Assembly: GCF_032062105.1 (NCBI RefSeq)
Contig: NW_026935111.1
Location: 1 to 62,942 of the forward strand
Source: Saccostrea cucullata
Taxonomy: Eukaryota
DNA length: 62,942 nucleotides
Direction of reading: 5' to 3'
Positions 47,832-61,591 of this stretch are shown one piece after another. Each line of letters begins with the position of its first letter. The stretch's first letter is position 1. The position numbers were made by a program, and so were the translations under genes. The notes beneath the pieces were generated by a model, which was not told the DNA's origin, made no database searches, and was given only the letters and a program-made list of their open reading frames with translations.

Positions 47832-49230
47832 TTGTCCTACGGACCTGGTTTAACGATAGAATTCTTTCCGTGTATACTTAATGTAGCAAAAGAAACATAG
47901 GCGATAACACGTACTTAATATAACTTAGTGCATTTACTACGAACAATCTAGAGAGTTCCGAATGTAAACATGGCAGGTAAATTTGAAGGGAGAGAAAAAC
48001 GTTGAGAAAATTAAATGGATTTTCGTCTTTAGATGGATTATTTTCTGGAATAAAAGGCATAAGCAATCTTAAAAAGGTTTGTTTTGATTAATTTGATAGT
48101 TACCCTTTTATATTCTTCAAAATCGTTTCGGAGCGGATCCGCTCCGATTTGCTACACTGCAAGTATAAGGGACATATTCTAACTGTGGTGAGGGCTTGTA
48201 CCGAGACACAGTTAGCTCATTCTAACTATTTGTAGACGAGTAAGGAATTTTTTGAAACTAATCTTTCTTTTGATTCTGGTAAGAATTCGGAGGAATTAAT
48301 CCAGAAATAAGCGCAACTTTTTGTACACAATAAATATTCAGTTTTTAAAAAATGTGTGGCACTGTAGCTCTCCAGTCTGTGACAGTGAATTTAATTTTTT
48401 GGAGAGCTACAGTTGTGCAGCTACAGCCAGGTCCAGCACAATACCCCGATAAAGGTATATAGCTTGATAAAGTTATATAGCTTTATCAAGGTATTTAAAA
48501 TACCTTGATCAAGGTATTTTATGTAATGAAAATTCAAAAAAATTCTTTAAAAATTAATTACTGAAAGTCGAGTTCTGAGTTTTTGTCAGTAAATTCACCC
48601 ATGCATGTAAAGTACTCAAACACAAACAAATCAGTAGAAAAACGTGTCGTGTGAGGAGACGTTATTTTATGCTTTCTTTTTGATACCAGAGTGTTTTTCA
48701 TGCACGAGTAGACACACTGACAAAAACTCAGAATTCGACTTTCAGTAATTAATTTTTAAAGAATTTTTTTGAATTTTCATTACATACAGTACCTTGATCA
48801 AGGTATTTTAAATAGCTTGATAAAGCTATATAGCTTTATCAAGCTATATAACTTTATCAGGGTATTGTGCTGGACCTGACAGCCATGATAGTATTATCAT
48901 ATTTTATTCGATAAATTATTTAACAGTCATGTATCTCTAGTCATTAAACAAATCAATTAGGCTTAATAATGCTTGTATAAAATATAGCTCATTTGATTTT
49001 GATTCTTGTTGATTCAGTTTGATTGCACATGTAAACATTTACTCGTTTGTTTACACATTTTATATTGACATAAATATTGAATAAAGCTTAAGAAAAAAAA
49101 GACGATTTAAAATGATGCTAATTTCCAGACACCAATAATCTGTCTTACCCTGAATAAAATCACAAAATATCGCTGAAAAGGTCAACACACAAAAAACAAC
49201 CCGACACTTTCTTCTGTGGAACAACCCCAT
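21007..49230 (-). CDS. NEO1: Neogenin/DCC/frazzled netrin receptor (signal peptide, 4 Ig, 6 FN3, TM, cytoplasmic P1 and P3 motifs), ~1495 aa
   Basis: Phase-consistent exons, 5' to 3': 49230-49149, 45708-45546, 40681-40551, 39891-39604, 39011-38846, 38085-37943, 37542-37270, 36998-36806, 36209-36064, 35939-35754, 35430-35279, 34941-34683, 34132-33935, 33463-33368, 33016-32836, 32024-31879, 31437-31330, 30911-30714, 29280-29179, 28147-27976 (TM), 27191-26983 (P1 [10 protein letters not shown]), 26815-26672, 26587-26423, 25668-25609 and 24572-24483 (both less certain), 23775-23575, 21523-21387, 21105-21007 (P3 [16 protein letters not shown]). Invertebrate pro-orthologue of NEO1/DCC. Confidence 0.93.
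24388..24480 (+). repeat. (GACA)n-containing 31-bp tandem repeat, 3 copies
   Basis: tacagacagacagacagacagagggatacat repeated three times, ending next to a putative GC splice donor. Confidence 0.85.
25706..26145. mobile_element. PIF/Harbinger-type MITE
   Basis: ~33-bp TIR GGCCAAAAAAAATTAATAAAT.GTTTCTCAGG with 3-bp TSD taa. Confidence 0.8.
27400..27917 (+). mobile_element. Helentron-associated non-autonomous element (HINE/pearl type)
   Basis: AACAAG start, subterminal gtcccctaccgg, (GACA/GACG)n microsatellite, and 3' palindrome tagtcccctccggtttcaccggtaggggacta. Confidence 0.8.
28545..29230 (-). repeat. 62-bp minisatellite (~11 copies) that copies the 3' end and donor of exon 29280-29179
   Basis: Minus-strand unit gtaaatatagaacaggaaaatcccacctcacaatagtataccacagtcacccaaaccagaag. 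Confidence 0.9.
30956..31141. repeat. Perfect 93-bp tandem duplication (intronic)
   Basis: taacccttatcattaa...gccatgtgaaaat occurs at 30956 and again at 31049. Confidence 0.9.
31651..31823. mobile_element. Internally deleted copy of the Harbinger-type MITE at 25706
   Basis: Same TIRs and shared internal blocks (caatatgtcaataaaattga, gcggtgcctgagaaacta). Confidence 0.75.
31993..32345 (-). repeat. 51-bp minisatellite (~7 copies) that copies the acceptor and 5' end of exon 32024-31879
   Basis: Unit atactggtaccagaactttactgaccttaatggtttaccgttacatttcag, encoding [17 protein letters not shown] in the ORF track. Confidence 0.9.
33236..33382 (-). repeat. 35-bp minisatellite (4 copies) that copies the donor of exon 33463-33368
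   Basis: Unit gtaagataccacctaaaataccaccaaagaatcag. Confidence 0.9.
33678..33850. mobile_element. Tc1/mariner(pogo)-type MITE
   Basis: TIR CAGTAAAACTC/GAGTTTTACTG with TA at the right flank. Confidence 0.65.
39060..40545. mobile_element. Three degenerate copies of a short MITE family (~39060-39250, 40045-40252, 40350-40545)
   Basis: Shared motifs such as tttgaatttgccc, ggcgaaaataaaa.ggggcaaaa and ccctgtat recur in the introns around the Ig exons. Confidence 0.45.
42823..44169. mobile_element. Non-autonomous TIR element (hAT-like ends, 6-bp TSD)
   Basis: Perfect 17-bp TIR CAGTGTTTTCAATAAGA flanked by tacact on both sides. Confidence 0.85.
44243..44372. repeat. Long palindrome H8; probably the hairpin of another hairpin element whose far end is unresolved
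   Basis: aatacatgtcaaaatctgtatcacaccccatatcaaccc ... gggttgatatggggtgtgatacagattttgacatgtatt. Confidence 0.8.
47031..47437. mobile_element. pogo/Tc1-mariner-type MITE
   Basis: TA|CCGTATAATC ... GATTATACGG|TA. Confidence 0.7.
47451..48413. mobile_element. Non-autonomous TIR element with self-palindromic ~50-bp TIRs
   Basis: actgtagctctc...gagagctacagtgc at the left end and its inverted copy at 48359-48413. Confidence 0.65.
48428..48878. mobile_element. Foldback MITE with ~165-bp TIRs and a 5-bp TSD
   Basis: CAGGTCCAGCACAATACCC...GGGTATTGTGCTGGACCTG, flanked by acagc (48423-48427, 48879-48883). Confidence 0.9.
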
Positions 49231-50904: not shown

Positions 50905-52486
50905 ATATTTGCATATCCACTGCTCTCTCCCACTATAATTTAATTTTGCTTGTATTCTTGCCTCTCATTGGTTGATTTCCAAAAAGAAACGCATAACATT
51001 TTGTATAATCTGGTTTGGTAAGGGGACACACCCCCTTGACAACCAGCATAATCATCTGTATCCATCAATCCCCTCATTTCCAGTCCTTGGGATTCATGGA
51101 AAATTCCAGATTTAATGAATGTACCTTTAATTTCAAACAGTTACTCGATCTTACCTCATGCAAACAAGCATCATGGCTGCTAGATCTATGCATAAGTTTT
51201 TACCTCCCCTCGCTTCCCATCACTTCCGTTACTACGGTTGTATTATTGCGCGGTAAATTTGAACTCATAAAAACAACACAATTTTACATCCCCAGTTGAA
51301 TAATTATTTTAAAATTAAATTATAAGGAATGATTCTAATTCTTGGCCAAATTATCGAGTATAATATGGTTTATAATCCGCCAAGCGGATTATAAAGCGTA
51401 AACTGACCCAAACCATATTATACTCGATAATTTGGCCTTTTTATAATCCGCTTCGCGGATTATAAAGCGTAAACTGACTCAAACCATATTATACTCGATA
51501 ATTTGGCCAAGAATTAGAGTCATTCCTTAAATGAACCTGCAGGCTTCAACTGCGTTCATAGCACTAGAGACGCAACTGCTTCTGCTATGAGTGCAATAGC
51601 TCTATCACACTCGTGTAGAACAATCTCTACTAGAATTATTAATCGTGTTGAGAAGTATATATATGAAATGTTTCATGAGAGGAATAAAAATAAGTTTTTA
51701 ATAATATTCTTTAAAAAAAAAGGAAATTCAGAATATTTAAAATTGCTGATTCATATCTTTAAAAATTTAATTTTGGTCAATGTATTTAATTGTATAATAA
51801 AACTTTTTAAAAATTTAGAGAACGGCTACATTTATATTTTTTCGTATCATGTATATTTGTACAAAGAACGATAACTCTTCACACTTGGGTAATAACATTC
51901 AGAAAGAAAAAAATTCTACTTCAAGAATGATTTCAGCTATTAAAAAAAAATAGAAAAACTAAAAAAAAATCAAAGAAAAGCATTCTGGAGTAATAATCAT
52001 TATAAAAGCATTCTTATTTTTCATCATAGATCTAAATTATTGATTTTTGTCAGAGGGTTTCAATAACGTTGATCGATGACGTCACAACTGCATCAAAACA
52101 AAAATTAAGAGAATGTGATGACGGCGCTGCTTGTATCCAGATAACTGTGTTTGAGAGGGAAATGCTTTATAAATTGTTTGTGATTTATTAGAGAAAAGGA
52201 TCATTGATCAGGTGTAGTGATTATAAAGCCGTATGTTTTTCATTACTAAAGACAAAAAGCTGCGTCCTTATGTAAGTCAGGATTTCCTCTGATATTCTTG
52301 AAAAACTCAAAGAATGCAAATATAAGTAATAAACAACGATTATTCAGTGAACATGGCATTATGAATAGCAATAGCTCTGCTGGCATATTTTCCATGATGC
52401 GCTAGCGCGCATCATGGAATATGCCAGCAGAGCAATTGCTATTCATAACGCCATGTTCACTGAAAAACGTTGTTTATTTCTTAAAT
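50905..52486. mobile_element. Hairpin element H4 nested in H3; hosts H5
   Basis: ATATTTGCAT (50905-50914) pairs with ATGCAAATAT (52314-52323). Palindrome 52323-52483, whose tip region resembles that of H2. Confidence 0.72.
50934..51532. mobile_element. Hairpin element H5 nested in H4
   Basis: Perfect 14-bp pair TATAATTTAATTTT (50934-50947) / AAAATTAAATTATA (51311-51324). Rearranged palindrome at 51323-51529, related to H1. Confidence 0.78.
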
Positions 52487-53092: not shown

Positions 53093-53555
53093 TGTAACGG
53101 GACTGTCTAGGGGTTAGTCCCGTACATAAGTCCGAGTTCAAAGGATAAAAGAATGACAAGAATTTCAGTGTTTTAAAGAATACTATATTCTGTTGCAATA
53201 TTTACAATTTACAAACAAACGTAAAAGATATGAAACAATATCATATAAAATCCAAGAATGCAATAATTACCATTATAGAAATTTAGCCCCAGTCCCCAAA
53301 AATACGTCTGATCGATAATTGATAATAATGTAGACTGCACTGAATACACAATATACATAACAATAGTAATAGTAAACCCCGGCCGGGTACTGTAGACCCG
53401 GGCGCGCCCAACCCGAAGGGGTTATAAACAAAGGGGAATAACTCTAAACAACAAGTAATGACAAATAGAGGGAAATATGAATAAAATAAGGCACATATAC
53501 ATAAATACATATAATTGCATACACATATAATTAAATATAGGTAAAAACCACCACA
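53093..53555 (-). repeat. 3' LTR (463 bp)
   Basis: tgtaacgggac...aaaccaccaca, a direct repeat of 60548-61591. Confidence 0.95.
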
Positions 53556-53568
53556 CTCCCCCTTCCTT
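53556..53568 (-). other. Polypurine tract
   Basis: AAGGAAGGGGGAG on the minus strand, directly before the 3' LTR. Confidence 0.9.
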
Positions 53569-53827: not shown

Positions 53828-54715
53828 TTACTCCTCAAACAGCTTGTCCATCGCTCGCAACTTCCTGATCTCGCTCTCTAATTCCCGGTTCTTCTTCTCC
53901 AGTTGACGCCTCGTTTCCCTCTCTCGCTCCAGTTCCGTTCGCTCACCGTCCTTTATCCTCTTTTTCACCAGTGCTCTCGCTCGTCCTACTACGTCCATGC
54001 TGTTGCACAGCCACATGAGGCACGACTGCAATTCCTCTGAATCACCTGCCTCTGGGAGGTTCGGTAGGTCGAGGCTGGGTAGGTTCACCCATGTTGTTTG
54101 GGTCCCTGTAGACCGGTGATCTGGGACCTCCCTGTCCCTGTACTCCTGTAGAGTAAGCCTTCTCTTCTTGCTGCTGGTCTCCAGCTCTTCTTCCTTAAGG
54201 TCGGTTGTTGGTGCAGTGGGCTCAGTCTGAGTAGAACATCTACTCTCCACATCCACCGGCGTTATTCCATCATCTGTAGTGGACTTCTCCTGTTCCTGGG
54301 TCACTACTAGGTCAGTAGTTTCTCTCAGGCATCCGCCTCTGAATACATATAGACCTGGGTCTAAATAACCCTTGTTCTCCCTGTGAATCATCTCACACTT
54401 AGTGAGTATAAACTCCACTCGGTCTGGATTGCTCTCATGTGCTCGACGAATGTGAGTTCGCATGTCTGATTTCCGTCTACACTCCGCGCTACACCCATTA
54501 ACAGAACATATAAATTTGGTGACAGATAGTTTGTGTCTCTCCTCCCAGTGTCTGGAGAATTTTGATTTGGAAGGAAACTTCGTTCCTCTGCATCCTAGCA
54601 CGGGGCAGATCATTCCTGAAGGATCGTATAGGACTTCAATATAGTCGGTCTGGCACTGTCCAAGGACAGCATTGACTTCACTCAGATCCGCGAATAGTTC
54701 AAGAAAATCTGTAGC
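53828..54715 (-). CDS. Accessory ORF3 of the retrotransposon: two C2H2-type zinc fingers, acidic linker, basic RRLTLQEYR motif, C-terminal coiled coil; probably spliced
   Basis: Open frame 54859-53828 with CPVLGC..HWEERH and CSVNGC..HIRRAH. An in-frame acceptor ttgtatttcag|GCT at 54715 marks the switch from AT-rich to coding-like sequence. Confidence 0.8.
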   Translation of the reverse strand, partial: ATDFLELFADLSEVNAVLGQCQTDYIEVLYDPSGMICPVLGCRGTKFPSKSKFSRHWEERHKLSVTKFICSVNGCSAECRRKSDMRTHIRRAHESNPDRVEFILTKCEMIHRENKGYLDPGLYVFRGGCLRETTDLVVTQEQEKSTTDDGITPVDVESRCSTQTEPTAPTTDLKEEELETSSKKRRLTLQEYRDREVPDHRSTGTQTTWVNLPSLDLPNLPEAGDSEELQSCLMWLCNSMDVVGRARALVKKRIKDGERTELERERETRRQLEKKNRELESEIRKLRAMDKLFEE

Positions 54716-55144
54716 CTGAAATACAATTTGTTTATCATTAAAGAACTGTATGAATACTTTCTTTTTACTAATAAAACTTGCATTATAACAGCAAAGAGTT
54801 GGAAAGGAAAATAAATAGACTGTATAACCTATCCCCGCCCAATTATACAACAATGACAACTGTCATTTCTCCGACACAACAAGTACACATCCCATCACAT
54901 CACTCAGAGAATCACTATTCTCTCATGGGAAATAACACCTGGTAGATAAGACACCGAAAGCTAAACCCATGGTGTACACAAAACAATTCTACCCAATTCC
55001 AACCTTAGGAATTTATACCATGTACTACATGTCATCATGTCCTCAACAGACATAAAATTGGGTCTTCCATAGGATTATACTTCATTAAAACAAACAAATA
55101 ACATAAACACCACCCCAAGAAATATATTTATCTTATTTATTTTT

Positions 55145-58100
55145 CTAAGGAGAATATCGAGAAACGGGTTTTATGAGCCTTCCTTTCCGCGAGAAAGCAT
55201 CAGCGCGTCTGGATTGAACCGCATCCAGATCTGGCGATTTGCAAGCCAAAGGCTCGATTTCCTCCCGATCGCTCATAGTATCATATTCGGAATCTGAATT
55301 TTCTTCGTATAGACAAGATTCGTCTTGGTCATTGTCAGAATCATATTGATTCTCTGCAATTCCGTCACCGTGAAGTTGCTTCAGATGATCAACATGGACC
55401 ACAACTGTTTTTCCTGTTGTTTCATGTTTTATCTCATAGGTTATGTCTGAGAATTTCCGAACAACCCTGTAGGGTCCTGTCCAACCGGATCCCAATTTTT
55501 GGTTTGCTTTTGGTGGGTACCATCTCCATACCAGATCGTCTATTGCAAACTCTCGTGGCTTCAGTCTAACATCGTGGTATCGTTTCTGTTTCTTAAAACT
55601 TGATCGCAAGTTTTCATGAACAATTCCATATGTCATTTCCATGGTATTGCGAATCCATTCTATGTAAGAATGATAGCAGCCAATCTCTGGTGTATTTGTA
55701 GGAGTTGTACCAGCTATAACATCTATGGGCAAATTGATTTCTCTCCCTAACATGACCAGATTGGGAGTGCATTTTGTACTCTCGTGAACCGTGGCACGAT
55801 AGGCCATCATTAAATATGGCAAGTGGTCATCCCAGTTAGATCTGTTCTCATTGACAAAGATGGATAAAATTTGCTGGAGTGTGCGGTTGAATCTCTCTAC
55901 CATACCGTCGGATTGAGGGTGATATGGTGTGGTACGGGATTTTATTATCTCCAAGAGAGAGCACAACTCAGCAAACAGAGCTGATTCGAATTCACGGCCT
56001 TGGTCGGTATGAATTCTAAATGGTATGCCTAAGCGGCATATTACTTCCGTTACAAGTTTATCTGCAACCGTCTGTGCTGTATGATCTTCTAATGCAAATG
56101 CCTCTTTCCATTTGGAAAAATAATCGCCAACAACCATAATGTATTGTTTTCCTTCTCTAGTTAATGGTAGGGGACCTAAGATGTCGATGGCAAGACATTC
56201 CATAGGACCAAATACTTCATGGTGTTGCATTGGAGACTTCCCTTGTCCAGGGCCTGGCTTTTTCTTTGAACAAGGTTGACAAGTTTGACACCAGCGTGCA
56301 ACATCATCAGTCATTCCTGGCCAATAAAAACGATTTCTGATAGAATGTAGAGTTCTCTCGCGTCCAAGATGTCCCGACGTCTTACTGTTATGCAAATGTT
56401 GCATAATTTCTCTCCTAATAGACTTTGGGGCAACTAACTGGAGACGACTTTCGTTTTCATTTTCTTCCCATACTCGGTAGAGTATATGGTTCTCCACTTT
56501 TAGTCGCTGCCACTGGCGAAGCAAGGTGATAACTGTTGGCAGAGGATCATTTAGTTTCGGACGCTCTCTCCGATTAATGATAAGCTGTTTAACCTTTGAT
56601 ATTGCCATGTCTTTGTCCTGTTGTTCTTGTAAGTACTGAGGACTCCATTGTTCTACCCAATTGGATTCAGGTCTACTAGTCTTGGTAATGTCTGAATCTT
56701 GAATAGCTGCTGAGCTCAAAGCATTGACTGAGCATTCTCCAGATGAACATTGGTTGCATCCTTCTCTTTTGCAACGTTTCCTTGGTTTCCTAGACAAGCC
56801 ATCTGCATTGCCATGAAGACTTCCTTTTCTGTGTTCAATTTTGAAGTCGTAGGTTTCCAAGAGAGATATCCAGCGTGCAAGTAAACCTTCTGGCTCCTTA
56901 AAATTCTTCAACCAGATCAACGAAGAATGGTCTGTTCTTAATAAAAAGGGTCTACCATATAGATAGTGTCGGAATTGTTTGACAAAGGTTACGACTGCTA
57001 TTAATCCTCGATACGTGGTGCAATATCCCATTTGGGATCTGGATAGTGTCTTGCTACCATAAGCAATTACTACTTCCTCGCCATTTTGCATCTGTGAGAG
57101 CACAGCTCCGACTCCATATGCGCTAGCATCAGTATCCAATATAAATTCGTCTGTTGGTGATGGGTACGATAATACTGGTGCAGTTGTAAGGAGATGCTTT
57201 AAGGTATCAAAAGCATTTTCACATTCCTCTGACCATTCAAACTTTCTGTTCTTTTGTGTCAAGCGGGTTAGCGGGTATGCGACATTCGAAAAATTGTTTA
57301 TAAACCTGCGATAATAGGATGCGAGTCCTATAAAGCTGCGTACTTCTGAAACGGAAGTTGGTACGGGCCAATTCCTTACAGCTGATATCTTGTTGGGGTT
57401 ACATCTAATACCTTCTTGGGATACAGTATGACCCAGAAATTCTACTTGTTCTTGAAACAAGGCGCATTTCTTCGGTTTTAGTTTAAGATTTGCTGTACGA
57501 AGTCTGTCAAAGATGACAGTCAGGTTCTCTAGAGTTTCTTCGAACGTGGCACCAAATGTTATGATGTCGTCTAGATAAACTAGACATTTCTCCCATTGTA
57601 GGCCAGATAGAACGGCTTCCATTAAGCGTTCAAATGTCGCAGGGCTATTAGATAAACCAAACGGTAACACATTAAACTGGAAAAGACCCCTGTGGGTTGC
57701 GAATGCTGTCTTGGTTTTATCGGATTCGTCCATAGCGACTTGCCAATAGCCACTAGCAAGATCGAGGGTACAGAAGAATTTAGCGCCGGAGAGTGTGTCT
57801 AGTGATTCGTTGATTCGTGGTAGGGGATAGGCATCCTTAATCGTTATGTTATTTAGCTTCCGATAATCTACACAGAATCGTGTAGTTCCATCCCGTTTCT
57901 TCACTAAAACTATTCGCGCAGCCCAAGGTGAACTGCTTGGTTCTATTATATCAGCTTCAAGCATTTTGTCTATTTCTTGATCTGCTATAGCTTTTTGGTG
58001 CATAGGGAGACGTCTTGGTGGTAACTTGATTGGCTTAGCGCTGTCAGTATTTATTGTGTGTTTCACAAGATCTGTACGCCCTAATGGGGTATTTGATCCC

Positions 58101-59023
58101 ATAAAAACGTCAGCATAACGTGCTAAGGTGTCGCTTAACAGCTGGCGTTGCTGTTCAGTTAAGTTACTCGAGCTGTTGTTGACCAGGGACTGCAAATAGT
58201 CTGGTAAGTTAGGCAAGTTTGTGTCCACTGGACGGCTCTCTGTGACTTTTTTGCTGTCGAATTCAGTGACAGAATCAATTGTTTGTACGGATGCCACTGT
58301 AGCGTTTCTTTTAAGTATCACTGCCTCTTTTGTAGGATTTAGGACTGAGAAGAGCACTTTGTTATCTTGTACTTTGACGACCGATTTTGGCAGTAAAATT
58401 CCTTTACTATTAGAGAGTGGTTCTATCAATCCGTCCACACCATGTGGAAATCCACAGTCTGTGCTTCCTTTCAAAAACATCTCGCTTTTCGCTGGTATGC
58501 TAATTGTCTCTGTAACATAAATGCGTGCGCATGTACTCTGTAATTTGTCCTCTTTTACTAGACCAATCTCACCAAAGAATGGTGAACGTAGACGTCCAGC
58601 ATTCATGTCCATTATAGCTTCATATTTTGAAAGAAAATCAAGTCCGAGTATACCGGACAAATCTCCAAGTTGAGCAACAACAACAGTTGTCAAAAATTCC
58701 TTCCCATTAATACATAAGTCTATATCGGTTTTACCCTTCACCGAGAGCAAATCTCCATCGGCAGTAGTTAATTTAGTCTGTAGATCATCTAGATCTTTGT
58801 TTCCAAGCAATGAATCAAAAATTTCATTTGATATTAGACTCCAACTGGACCCCGTATCGACAAGAAAATTAATTTCTTTATTACAAAGTTTTGCTTTGAC
58901 AAACCAACAACTTCTGGAAATACTGGACAAACGAGCTTTCATGTCTTGTTTTGGCCTATTTTCATGACTGGGTTTTTCAGGGGCTGGGCTTACGGCCGTG
59001 GGCTCAGCCCATTTTCGTTTAAA
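55145..59023 (-). CDS. pol: Pol polyprotein (aspartic protease, RT, RNase H, integrase with GPY/F), expressed by -1 frameshift
   Basis: FLVDTGSS, YLDD, LDTDAS, H..GH..C..C, IDILGP..TDQG..VER and WTGPY motifs. The frame is open from TTTAAAC at 59023. Confidence 0.95.
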   Translation of the reverse strand, partial: FKRKWAEPTAVSPAPEKPSHENRPKQDMKARLSSISRSCWFVKAKLCNKEINFLVDTGSSWSLISNEIFDSLLGNKDLDDLQTKLTTADGDLLSVKGKTDIDLCINGKEFLTTVVVAQLGDLSGILGLDFLSKYEAIMDMNAGRLRSPFFGEIGLVKEDKLQSTCARIYVTETISIPAKSEMFLKGSTDCGFPHGVDGLIEPLSNSKGILLPKSVVKVQDNKVLFSVLNPTKEAVILKRNATVASVQTIDSVTEFDSKKVTESRPVDTNLPNLPDYLQSLVNNSSSNLTEQQRQLLSDTLARYADVFMGSNTPLGRTDLVKHTINTDSAKPIKLPPRRLPMHQKAIADQEIDKMLEADIIEPSSSPWAARIVLVKKRDGTTRFCVDYRKLNNITIKDAYPLPRINESLDTLSGAKFFCTLDLASGYWQVAMDESDKTKTAFATHRGLFQFNVLPFGLSNSPATFERLMEAVLSGLQWEKCLVYLDDIITFGATFEETLENLTVIFDRLRTANLKLKPKKCALFQEQVEFLGHTVSQEGIRCNPNKISAVRNWPVPTSVSEVRSFIGLASYYRRFINNFSNVAYPLTRLTQKNRKFEWSEECENAFDTLKHLLTTAPVLSYPSPTDEFILDTDASAYGVGAVLSQMQNGEEVVIAYGSKTLSRSQMGYCTTYRGLIAVVTFVKQFRHYLYGRPFLLRTDHSSLIWLKNFKEPEGLLARWISLLETYDFKIEHRKGSLHGNADGLSRKPRKRCKREGCNQCSSGECSVNALSSAAIQDSDITKTSRPESNWVEQWSPQYLQEQQDKDMAISKVKQLIINRRERPKLNDPLPTVITLLRQWQRLKVENHILYRVWEENENESRLQLVAPKSIRREIMQHLHNSKTSGHLGRERTLHSIRNRFYWPGMTDDVARWCQTCQPCSKKKPGPGQGKSPMQHHEVFGPMECLAIDILGPLPLTREGKQYIMVVGDYFSKWKEAFALEDHTAQTVADKLVTEVICRLGIPFRIHTDQGREFESALFAELCSLLEIIKSRTTPYHPQSDGMVERFNRTLQQILSIFVNENRSNWDDHLPYLMMAYRATVHESTKCTPNLVMLGREINLPIDVIAGTTPTNTPEIGCYHSYIEWIRNTMEMTYGIVHENLRSSFKKQKRYHDVRLKPREFAIDDLVWRWYPPKANQKLGSGWTGPYRVVRKFSDITYEIKHETTGKTVVVHVDHLKQLHGDGIAENQYDSDNDQDESCLYEENSDSEYDTMSDREEIEPLACKSPDLDAVQSRRADAFSRKGRLIKPVSRYSP
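58978..59023 (-). other. -1 programmed ribosomal frameshift signal
   Basis: Slippery heptamer T TTA AAC, 6-nt spacer, then stem GGGCTGAGC/GCCCAGCCC. Confidence 0.85.
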
Positions 59024-60447
59024 TGACTAGAGTCATTATGGGTTCCCCTTTTATTTTTCGGCTTTGAGTTTTTCTTTGGACATTTTGAACTTATATGGCC
59101 AGTTTCATTACAAGCGTAACAAACTATTTCTCGAGGCCCATTACGACCATTAGGTCTTTTCTCGTAAGGACCATTGTGTCCTTTAATTTCCAAAGACTTC
59201 AGTGTTTTCTGAATCATGTGTTGAATAGATTCTTCTAGTTTTTCAAGATTTACATGACTATTGTCATTTTTATCCGTGGGCGGAAGAACAGCGCGTGCAT
59301 AACCAACATGTGGTTTCTCAATGTCCTGCGGTTTCCGTGGGGTGTCTTGTGACCCTTCAAACGACTCAAATTCGAGTGCCAGAGAAATAGCGCGATCTAG
59401 CGTTTTAGGATGAGTAAACTGCACGTAGCGTTTTAGTTCGTGACAACCTAAACCAGCGACAAACTGTTCAACAGTAAGACTTTCACGCATATCTGAAGGA
59501 AATGTAGGGAAAGCGCGACCAGCTAGTCGCCTTAACGAGTATCCATATTCGGACACTGTTTCACCTGGTTTCCGTTTTCTATTACGAAACTCGCACCTGT
59601 ATGCCGTTTCACGCTCAGGTGGAGAAAATCGCTGAGTTAGCGCGCATTTTAACTCGACATAGTTGCCTAGTTCCCTATACGAGAGCTCACTAAAAACTCT
59701 TTGCGCTCGACCTCTCAAACTCATAGCTAACTGTGTAGCTTTCTCAGCATCTGTCCACTCGTTCCACATTGCAACTTCCTCGAAATGGCATAAATAATCG
59801 GGCCATTCTGTATTCTCTGCGTTGTACACGTCCGGTTCTTTGTATTTTCTAAAACGATTGTTTCTTTTAGACTCAGACTGGTTTCCATAATTATTAAAAA
59901 CACTTTGTTCTTTCTCAAAATTAACCTGAGGTGTTTTACAAACATTAAGTTTATCTCTGCCATATTTATTTGCGTAAGAATCACGCAGTGTGCTAGCTTT
60001 CGTTCGCATAAAGTTAGCATCGGAATGGCTTTTCATACTCTTTGTGTACGACGTCACGTGATCTATGGATTCGTCTGTATTTTGTCTATACATCGGTGAA
60101 AAACATCTGTTTTCTGATTGATTAGGTGAGAAATACGATGAATTTCGGGGACACTCAGTATCAGAGTTTATTTTGGAATCAGAATTATCTGATTTATATC
60201 CACGTTCCATCGACAATGACGGAGAAAAAGATGAAACAAGCGTGTCGTATGCAGAATCTTCGTCAAGTAAGTGCGTGGATCTAACATTTTTCACTTTCGC
60301 ATTGTCGGAAACTTTAGCAGTTTCATTACATCCTATTTTAGAATTTCCTCCAGATTTAGAGGATTGTTCATCCGATTTACAAGTAACACGAAGAAAACTT
60401 GGAATGAAAAATCGCAAAATTGCGAGAAACCCTCCCCAAAAAGACAT
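58990..60447 (-). CDS. gag: Gag with CCHC zinc knuckle
   Basis: Retrotransposon capsid-like region (WPDYLCHFE...W, LRGRA, RKPGETVSEY) and CYACNETGHISSKC. First ATG at 60447. Confidence 0.92.
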   Translation of the reverse strand: MSFWGGFLAILRFFIPSFLRVTCKSDEQSSKSGGNSKIGCNETAKVSDNAKVKNVRSTHLLDEDSAYDTLVSSFSPSLSMERGYKSDNSDSKINSDTECPRNSSYFSPNQSENRCFSPMYRQNTDESIDHVTSYTKSMKSHSDANFMRTKASTLRDSYANKYGRDKLNVCKTPQVNFEKEQSVFNNYGNQSESKRNNRFRKYKEPDVYNAENTEWPDYLCHFEEVAMWNEWTDAEKATQLAMSLRGRAQRVFSELSYRELGNYVELKCALTQRFSPPERETAYRCEFRNRKRKPGETVSEYGYSLRRLAGRAFPTFPSDMRESLTVEQFVAGLGCHELKRYVQFTHPKTLDRAISLALEFESFEGSQDTPRKPQDIEKPHVGYARAVLPPTDKNDNSHVNLEKLEESIQHMIQKTLKSLEIKGHNGPYEKRPNGRNGPREIVCYACNETGHISSKCPKKNSKPKNKRGTHNDSSHLNENGLSPRP

Positions 60448-60517
60448 TGTATGTAAATAAATACACAGCGTCAATCGACGCGTAAAAATCCAAGATAAAA
60501 CACCAAAATATTCTTTT

Positions 60518-60537
60518 ATCCTCGGAACGAGCCCCCA
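60518..60537 (-). other. Primer binding site, tRNA-Pro
   Basis: TGGGGGCTCGTTCCGAGGAT compared with the canonical PBS-Pro TGGGGGCTCGTCCGGGAT. Confidence 0.85.
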
Positions 60538-60547
60538 AAAATATCTA

Positions 60548-61591
60548 TGTAACGGGACTGTCTAGGGGTTAGTCCCGTACATAAGTCCGAGTTCAAAGGA
60601 TAAAAGAATGACAAGAATTTCAGTGTTTAAAGAATTACTATATTCTGTTGCAATATTTACAATTTACAAACAAACGTAAAAGATATGAAACAATATCATT
60701 TGTTATACCCTTATAAATATCCTTCTATATATTTATTACTAATAAAAAGTCCAACAAAAGAAATGTTTATTACGTCGGTCTAACAATTTCACTATTGACC
60801 GGTCTTACATAAGAATTGTTAGACCGCAACGTCACTTGTCTGTTACGTCACAATTAATAATCATCGTTCAATATCGGCGACGCGAAAATAGCCGAAGTTA
60901 GGAGCTATTTTAAAAGAGTTGTTGCTAACAGCAAGGTAAGGTAGAAGGGAAGAGTATGTTTTGTGATAAATAATTTTTGTGATATAATAGATTTATAATT
61001 GATTTTGTTCTTTCTCAGCTTGATGTTTTATATTTACTGAAGAAGCCATAATTTTCCATATAAAATAATTGATAGTAAAGCGTGTATTGATAAAATTGAT
61101 CAATCTTAAGTGAGCAGTGAAGGGTAGAACAAAACAGTTATAGACTGGGATTCGGACAACATATGATTTGTTGGACCTGAAGATGAAAATGTTGCCCTTG
61201 GCCTGCGGCCTCGGGCAACATTTTCACCTTCAGGTCCAACAAATCATATGTTGCCCTCATACCCAGTCAATAACTGTATAATAAAATCCAAGAATGCAAT
61301 AATTACCATTGTAGAAATTTAGCCCCAGTCCCCGAAAATACGTCTGATAAGTAATTAATGATAATGTAGACTCTCTGATTACACAATATACATAGCATAT
61401 AATAATAGTAAACCCCGGCCGGGTACTATAGACCCGGGCGCGCCCAACCCGAACGGGTTATTAACAAAGGGGAATGACTCTAAACAACAAGTAATGACAA
61501 ATAGAGGGAAATATGAATAAAATAAGGCACATATACATAAATACATATAATTGCATACACATATAATTAAATATAGGTAAAAACCACCACA
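60548..61591 (-). repeat. 5' LTR interrupted by a 581-bp insertion
   Basis: Matches the 3' LTR on both sides of 60700-61280. Confidence 0.95.
60700..61280. mobile_element. Hairpin element H6 inserted in the 5' LTR without a TSD
   Basis: The 3' LTR gives the empty site aatatcat|ataaaatcc. TTTGTTATACCCTT (60699-60712) pairs with AAGGGTAGAACAAA (61120-61133). Palindrome at 61134-61277. Confidence 0.9.

Follow-up and report, generated by a model that had tools for sequence, protein, structure and literature searches.

The env position of a Gypsy retrotransposon in the oyster Saccostrea cucullata is occupied by ORF3, a real gene of the element that is under purifying selection. Sequence comparison shows ORF3 to be an accessory gene conserved within a clade of mollusc Gypsy elements, and its relatives occur in oysters and mussels. 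In our preferred reading, which we hold with about even confidence, its product is made from spliced RNA, binds DNA as a dimer, and activates the LTR of its own element.

A complete Gypsy element with a gene between pol and the polypurine tract

On its minus strand, the window (the whole stretch of DNA analyzed, 62,942 nucleotides of contig NW_026935111.1) carries a complete Gypsy LTR retrotransposon, in which the gag and pol frames are both open. The element has the features that define the Ty3/Gypsy group: LTRs of the form TG...CA, a target duplication (here 4 bp, flanking the element), a primer binding site, a polypurine tract, and gag followed by protease, reverse transcriptase (RT), RNase H, and integrase. 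The 5' LTR (60548-61591, minus strand, as are all element features below unless noted) is split by a 581-bp repeat at 60700-61280 and matches the 3' LTR (53093-53555) at 447 of 462 aligned bases. Between the LTRs lie the primer binding site (60518-60537), which we take to be tRNA-Pro-like; gag, with a CCHC knuckle (58990-60447, within an open frame at 58990-60561); pol (55145-59026), which encodes the four enzymes in an open frame that overlaps the end of gag; ORF3; and the polypurine tract (53556-53568).

Several observations concern other parts of the element, its surroundings, or its copies. The 581-bp repeat is high-copy and lies 26 nt within the predicted intron described below; reads heap on it and run off both ends, and sister-copy reads skip it. 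At the start of gag (60380-60447), a short hydrophobic stretch precedes a long serine-rich region and then the capsid domain. Outside the element, short direct repeats with internal palindromes (48438-48869 and 51369-51508) are probably small non-autonomous repeats. Elsewhere in the genome, a sister-element array (G000:C3756:57064-97335, covering L003-L008, L032, L079, and L080) comprises six head-to-tail copies with a period of 7878, one LTR per unit, and an additional 413 bp near the gag start of each unit. Adjacent units are 100% identical over 2023 bp, and these copies represent either a tandem array or an assembly artefact.

From stop to stop, the ORF3 frame encodes 344 amino acids (53828-54862) on the same strand as gag and pol. 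The elements listed in a preliminary description of this DNA, namely two fingers, a T/E-rich linker, SSKKRRLTLQEYRDR, and a charged helix, are all present between pol and the polypurine tract, and the absence of a signal peptide or transmembrane segment after 54715 is also confirmed (highest 19-residue hydropathy, 0.96). The start at 54859 given there is too far upstream, as the 49 codons before 54715 are noncoding. Close sister copies (L002, L003, L008, L009, and L014) have stops in these codons, and coding therefore starts at the acceptor at 54715, which these stops mark as the true 5' edge of the exon, as had been supposed. The coding exon (53828-54715) has 295 codons plus a stop and is preceded by a splice-acceptor AG after a pyrimidine run (54716-54717).

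ORF3 is conserved under purifying selection

A search of the same genome yielded at least 118 ORF3 matches (133 of 257 candidates scored). ORF3 was 3' of pol and on the same strand in all 20 loci fetched, within about 1 kb in 19 of them, and 36 of the 38 best RT matches, from a search in which 150 of 4932 candidates were scored, had an ORF3 match 2-5 kb downstream when compared by eye. The frame is kept in five families that are about 27-53% identical to the window protein. An RT tree was built from 39 loci of this genome, after two of 41 had been dropped for short RT sequences. In it, elements with long ORF3 genes formed a single branch (94/93, slightly below the starred level), which includes one locus without a hit. 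Named relatives of the element's ORFs come from Magallana, Saccostrea, Ostrea, and Mytilus.

Pairwise dN/dS values (Nei-Gojobori, 21 pairs) for ORF3 of the window against six sister copies were 0.09-0.21 in all six measurable pairs, with upper bootstrap limits of 0.33 or less; values for pol were 0.12-0.14. The remaining pairs gave 0.12-0.54, with intervals that include 1 for two very close pairs and saturation in three distant pairs. This purifying selection marks the frame as more than a chance ORF. The preliminary description had named loss or neutral decay of the frame in sister copies as evidence against its proposal; sisters keep the frame, under purifying selection. Two other identities for ORF3 could be rejected. 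Its pol-like dN/dS rules out a neutral passenger. No signal peptide or transmembrane segment, no Pfam env family, and no fusion-protein match was found in ORF3, and the Pfam null result together with the lack of a hydrophobic segment rules out an env or fusogen.

A finger module predicted to bind DNA

Two C2H2 fingers, followed by a helix, a strand, and a YxDPG sequence, span 54353-54607. Assignment to the C2H2 class rests on zinc-ligand cysteines and histidines that are invariant or nearly so among 27 relatives and on an AlphaFold2 model of the module alone (two fingers, helix, and strand) with a pLDDT of 93; the Pfam zf-C2H2 match is weak (E 0.009) and below its cut-off. Apart from the ligands, two prolines, and a tryptophan, the near-invariant residues in the 27 relatives are Arg55, Arg81, and Asp84. 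Positions -1, +3, and +6 of C2H2 fingers contact bases. Arg55 is +6 of finger 1, and Arg81 and Asp84 are -1 and +3 of finger 2.

The best sequence match in the PDB, which covers one finger, was CTCF finger 7 with an identical RKSD helix (E 1e-5). Likeness to CTCF fingers 6-7 (2ct1, 5k5l, and 5und) includes this helix, a long non-canonical linker, and similar pair geometry, and the accessible text on CTCF indicates that Asp451 reads the unmodified C of CpG or CpA and that full methylation blocks binding (PMC10484683). ORF3 differs in that its fingers number two, carry an additional helix-strand-DPG cap, and are accompanied by a coiled coil, and the local similarity, as an alignment result, would not indicate descent from CTCF.

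In Foldseek searches with the finger pair, DNA-bound Tramtrack and CTCF pairs ranked first (rmsd 2.0-2.7, 55-62 columns, probability 0.99), at weak E-values of 0.03-0.1, none under 0.001. With the whole ORF3 model, Foldseek gave no match at E 0.001 or better and VIA-align returned generic long helices only (Z 6.2-6.5). A viral structure library gave no match at E 0.001, and the ESM Atlas returned generic C2H2 clusters under 0.9, with 0.79 or less for the C-terminal half. ORF3 thus has the base-contacting residues and tandem geometry of DNA-binding C2H2 proteins, along with weak E-values and a non-canonical linker. The finger pair is predicted to bind DNA, and the C2H2 recognition code suggests a site like NCG-GNN. 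Pfam detected no chromatin-enzyme or known repressor domain in ORF3.

Features outside the fingers

In the AlphaFold2 model of whole ORF3, residues 226-288 form a helix and the rest of the protein outside the finger module is disordered. The N-terminal segment (54617-54715) is acidic and hydrophobic. Its first 33 residues include seven Asp or Glu and no Lys or Arg and have low pLDDT, and relatives are alike in this respect. An acidic make-up is usual for activation domains, and this segment may be one. The linker contains 11 threonines and eight glutamates in 53 residues.

A basic patch and a cyclin-T-like motif, KKRRLTLQEYR, occupy 54131-54175. The motif, of the form KK.SL.EY, is kept in 17 of 24 relatives, is missing from the other seven and from one whole long-ORF3 family, and is therefore not the core of ORF3 function. 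The proposed resemblance to cyclin T itself held up: cyclin T of this genome, identified by a Pfam CycT2-like_C match over the cut-off and by exon order, has KTSLAEYKER in a large downstream exon, although the motif amounts to five fixed positions and this one gene was inspected. The preliminary description had also placed a similar motif in SETD5/KMT2E; the genome has 83 SET matches, unsorted as to these proteins. Lys386 and Lys390 of human cyclin T1 are presumably inside the motif. According to the portions available, acetylation of human cyclin T1 at K380, K386, K390, and K404 releases P-TEFb from 7SK/HEXIM and binds BRD4 (PMC3717722, PMC3642088). Neither the ORF3 motif nor the corresponding stretch of host cyclin T matched any PDB sequence, literature titles gave nothing relevant for SLxEY, the accessible part of PMC13710762 is without it, and the literature yielded no binding partner for the motif. 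The motif includes a plausible nuclear signal, which could partly explain its conservation.

A TQT sequence (54092-54112) is a candidate site for LC8, the dynein light chain. A Q-anchored triplet just before the helix is present in 20 of 24 relatives, 12 with strict TQT, compared to 2.2 expected from shuffles; this count covers relatives with a C-terminus (three of 27 rows dropped), and the motif class was set after seeing the data. As in LC8 clients, the sequence around TQT is disordered and a coiled coil lies close by. The accessible text of one paper describes TQT as the LC8 anchor, insufficient alone for binding, and notes that LC8 also serves ASCIZ (PMC6607443). A predicted complex of two copies of host LC8 with ORF3 residues 176-225 scored a median of 0.31 against a mark of 0.34, in a run without controls that speaks neither for nor against binding. 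The long C-terminal helix (residues 226-288; 53852-54040) is zipper-like at its end and may dimerize ORF3.

Candidate target sites in the LTR

The LTR is AT-rich and contains a 55-bp CpG island (53371-53425, no strand assigned) that is also present in the 5' LTR. The island holds five YCGGK words (shuffle mean 0.9; 15 of 5000 shuffles as high), and the window LTR has three inverted CGG pairs (shuffle mean 0.13). Such pairs occur in five of six long-ORF3 LTRs vs four of 12 other LTRs, a comparison in which the CGG window was chosen after the data, the long-ORF3 LTRs share descent, and spacings differ; the LTR of the long-ORF3 family L036 has no CGG pair. These pairs are candidate ORF3 sites, a lead from sequence that was found after the prediction. 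Observed/expected CpG was 0.92-1.50 in 10 long-ORF3 LTRs vs 0.35-1.06 in 17 others, differences confounded by LTR length and shared descent. Promoter methylation is doubtful as a transposon silencer in oysters. A TAR-like hairpin in the island was considered and rejected, as the island folds no better than shuffles (z 0.2).

Predicted splicing, and expression

The acceptor AG is kept in all 11 close copies examined. In other families, an AG lies 0-2 bases ahead of ORF3's own ATG. The ORF3 exon of the window family has no ATG, and a predicted donor in the 5' LTR (61301-61309) follows an exon ending in ATG (61307-61309) that is in frame with the acceptor, an arrangement found in four of four close elements. 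A donor-like site that ends in ATG occurs only in this family, whose exon has none. Donor-like sites 159-212 nt from the LTR end are present in five of six long-ORF3 LTRs vs two of 12 others; the chance for each is 0.03-0.21, the position window was picked after seeing the data, and the LTRs are related by descent.

Eight sequencing runs were mapped, two as raw poly(A) reads and six as contigs, most of them merely guessed to be RNA. All eight cover ORF3 and carry sister-copy alleles; the reads match sister L002 at 25 of 26 sites and disagree with the window copy at many. ORF3 is therefore transcribed at the level of the family, from sister-copy alleles. The preliminary description had pointed to RNA junctions into 54715. 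One contig of X3, a probable RNA run, matches for 742 bases, ends exactly at the acceptor AG, and continues for 47 letters that match nothing in the element, which may be a host exon or another copy. Contigs of X1, X2, and X20 run through the acceptor, and no junction of the LTR donor to the acceptor appeared in the eight runs. Poly(A) run X23 had a depth of about 9-12 over ORF3 vs 0-3 over pol; 3' bias accounts for this excess equally, and we set it aside as evidence of subgenomic RNA. The indirect support for splicing, from AG and ATG positions and the LTR donor, is stronger than the read evidence.

Related genes in sister clades and host proteins

In elements of sister clades, the env slot holds either a shorter relative of ORF3 or a zinc-finger gene of a different kind. 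Among 20 further loci picked by RT, eight had a shorter relative, four a different two-finger ORF, and eight neither. The shorter relatives (L054, L055, L058, L060, L061, L068, L070, and L071, in a sister clade) are frames of 120-210 amino acids with an acidic start, the same finger module, and a charged helix (E 1e-8 to 1e-14), and the linker is missing from them, as are the KK motif and TQT. In L059, a close sister of L058, there is no ORF of this kind. Because eight of the 20 loci are without ORF3, some of them with near-identical LTRs, related elements can spread without it. The different gene behind pol (L065, L066, L069, and L072) encodes C2HC and C2H2 fingers, an acidic stretch, a basic patch, TQT or VQT in four of four cases, and a beta-rich end; it has 22 relatives, the named ones from oysters, including one annotated as 'zinc finger protein 407-like'.

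When 1.84 billion proteins were searched with a profile, 792 matched at E 0.001 and 197 at 1e-10. The best 150 of the 792 included ORF3-like proteins and large proteins in which the module is repeated up to about 15 times. Named examples of the latter come from Sinanodonta and Haliotis, and some carry an RRM or a P-loop motif. Seven (P0011, P0012, P0017, P0030, P0037, P0065, and P0101) have many finger-pair/DPG repeats and match no specific Pfam family. Three of the large proteins end in a P-loop motif, P0101 has an RRM, and one has acidic repeats; we take the P-loop proteins to recall YLPM1 and the acidic repeats to recall ZNF638/matrin. Annotations of oysters and mussels list the env-position ORFs as ordinary host genes, either uncharacterized or of the zinc-finger type.

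Discussion

The proposal that ORF3 is a transcription regulator was supported in part: ORF3 is a gene of the element, is conserved, belongs to a transcribed family, and has an anatomy that fits a transcription factor, whereas its nuclear location, DNA binding, and transactivating or anti-silencing role are predictions. The KK motif is present in host cyclin T but, being absent from some relatives and from a long-ORF3 family, is not the core of the function. In the activator mechanism, RNA initiated in the 5' LTR would lose gag and pol by splicing of the LTR donor to 54715, with the LTR exon supplying the ATG in the window family. The basic patch would take ORF3 into the nucleus, and the C-terminal helix would dimerize it, perhaps with help from LC8 at TQT. 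The finger pair would read a site like NCG-GNN, so that a dimer could sit on the inverted CGG pairs in the CpG island, with a preference for unmethylated C. The acidic N-terminus, with the cyclin-T-like motif in most families, might then bring in co-activators of Pol II or elongation factors, creating a positive feedback loop for genomic RNA.

Weighing against activation, the finger module is repeated in host proteins with RRM or P-loop motifs, which would also fit RNA binding; Foldseek E-values are weak and the CTCF match is to one finger; and three runs read through the acceptor, with no LTR-donor joint in eight. ORF3 might instead be a Rev- or CERV-like factor, made from spliced RNA, that binds the genomic RNA in unspliced form and either permits its export or prevents its splicing, a possibility to which we give modest weight. 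An element with a donor and an acceptor around gag-pol must export unspliced RNA, the accessible text on CERV of Cer1 describes a protein that does so from the same slot, with spliced expression, a basic nuclear signal, and a zipper (PMC10309623), and host proteins with the module carry an RRM (P0101) or a P-loop motif (three proteins). The conserved residues of ORF3, however, fall on DNA-contacting helix positions, fingers bound to DNA are its best matches in both sequence and fold, the N-terminus has the acidity expected of an activator, and the LTR island folds no better than its shuffles. Evidence for DNA binding from finger conservation, the CTCF match, and the fold applies equally if ORF3 binds the LTR and shields or represses it, as an anti-silencing factor, an insulator-like protein, or a feedback repressor that limits copies; the CTCF-like helix and the lack of CpG depletion in long-ORF3 LTRs would also fit. 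We regard this as rather improbable, given an N-terminus that suggests activation, the Pfam result for chromatin-enzyme and known repressor domains, and a CpG comparison confounded by length and descent.

A role after transcription, on particles or the pre-integration complex, would assign TQT to LC8/dynein transport and the fingers to tethering integration to CpG-rich DNA. The Q-anchored triplet, kept in 20 of 24 relatives, is more widespread than the KK motif, kept in 17, and TQT/VQT recurs in the otherwise unrelated zinc-finger ORF of the sister clade (four of four), but we think this role quite unlikely: TQT alone is no guarantee of LC8 binding and LC8 also serves ASCIZ, in the available text (PMC6607443), no feature of ORF3 suggests packaging, and the window copy sits in AT-rich DNA. 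That ORF3 is a captured fragment of a host gene, carried without function, would agree with a module common to host proteins and with the many broken copies; it is already contradicted by dN/dS values that match those of pol and by open frames down to about 30% identity in five families, and we consider it extremely improbable.

Among described systems, CERV, encoded by the C. elegans Ty3/Gypsy element Cer1, is the characterized case among non-env ORFs in the env slot, which are known and mostly unexplained, and it exports RNA; it lies in the same slot as ORF3, and its spliced expression, basic nuclear signal, and zipper (PMC10309623) have predicted counterparts in ORF3. On the descriptions, the two are set apart by the H, M, and G domains, possible C4 finger, and RNA export of CERV and by the two C2H2 fingers, DNA-type helix, acidic N-terminus, and TQT of ORF3. 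In the accessible text on MDG1-group Gypsy elements, sORF1 and sORF2 are likewise accessory genes of env-less elements, with sORF1 nuclear and sORF2 behind pol in some moths, but sORF2 is a short transmembrane fusogen, unlike ORF3, which has no transmembrane segment (PMC11952523). Errantivirus env shares the position and, as predicted for ORF3, is expressed by splicing, in the portion of the survey available (PMC13524379), and differs in the signal peptide, transmembrane segment, and fusion-protein match that ORF3 lacks. In its proposed role as an element-encoded nuclear factor that raises transcription of its own element, ORF3 is an analogue of retroviral transactivators (foamy virus Tas, HIV Tat, and HTLV Tax) and of the anti-silencing protein VANC of plants. 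Tas acts through an internal promoter, the target of Tat is an RNA hairpin, and VANC belongs to DNA transposons; no Tat-type hairpin was detected in the LTR island.

Literature titles and the starts of abstracts, with Repbase and most subscription journals outside reach, yielded no description of a C2H2 gene in the env slot of Gypsy elements, nor did those on accessory transactivators mention such a gene. The accessible main text of a mollusc LTR survey contains neither 'ORF' nor 'zinc' (PMC6238403), and that of the errantivirus survey does not contain 'zinc' (PMC13524379).

A bolder extension of the activator mechanism, which we offer as speculation and think doubtful, is that a broad mollusc Gypsy branch consists of 'complex' retrotransposons that encode their own transcription factor. 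A CTCF-like helix would read unmethylated CGG pairs in the LTR, LC8 and a zipper would hold the dimer, and a copy of a cyclin T motif would plug into Pol II elongation; at least two zinc-finger genes would have filled the env slot, and the finger module would have moved between elements and host proteins.

The gene offers a predicted LTR site, a predicted splice, and a short motif common with cyclin T, for which our literature search found no described partner. Some counts of bivalve zinc-finger genes likely include these env-position ORFs. In the usual view, LTR retrotransposons depend on transcription factors of the host, and animal hosts silence them with C2H2 proteins. If the activator reading is true, an element-encoded C2H2 factor reverses the usual role of such proteins as host silencers and gives a Gypsy element a regulatory gene like those of complex retroviruses.
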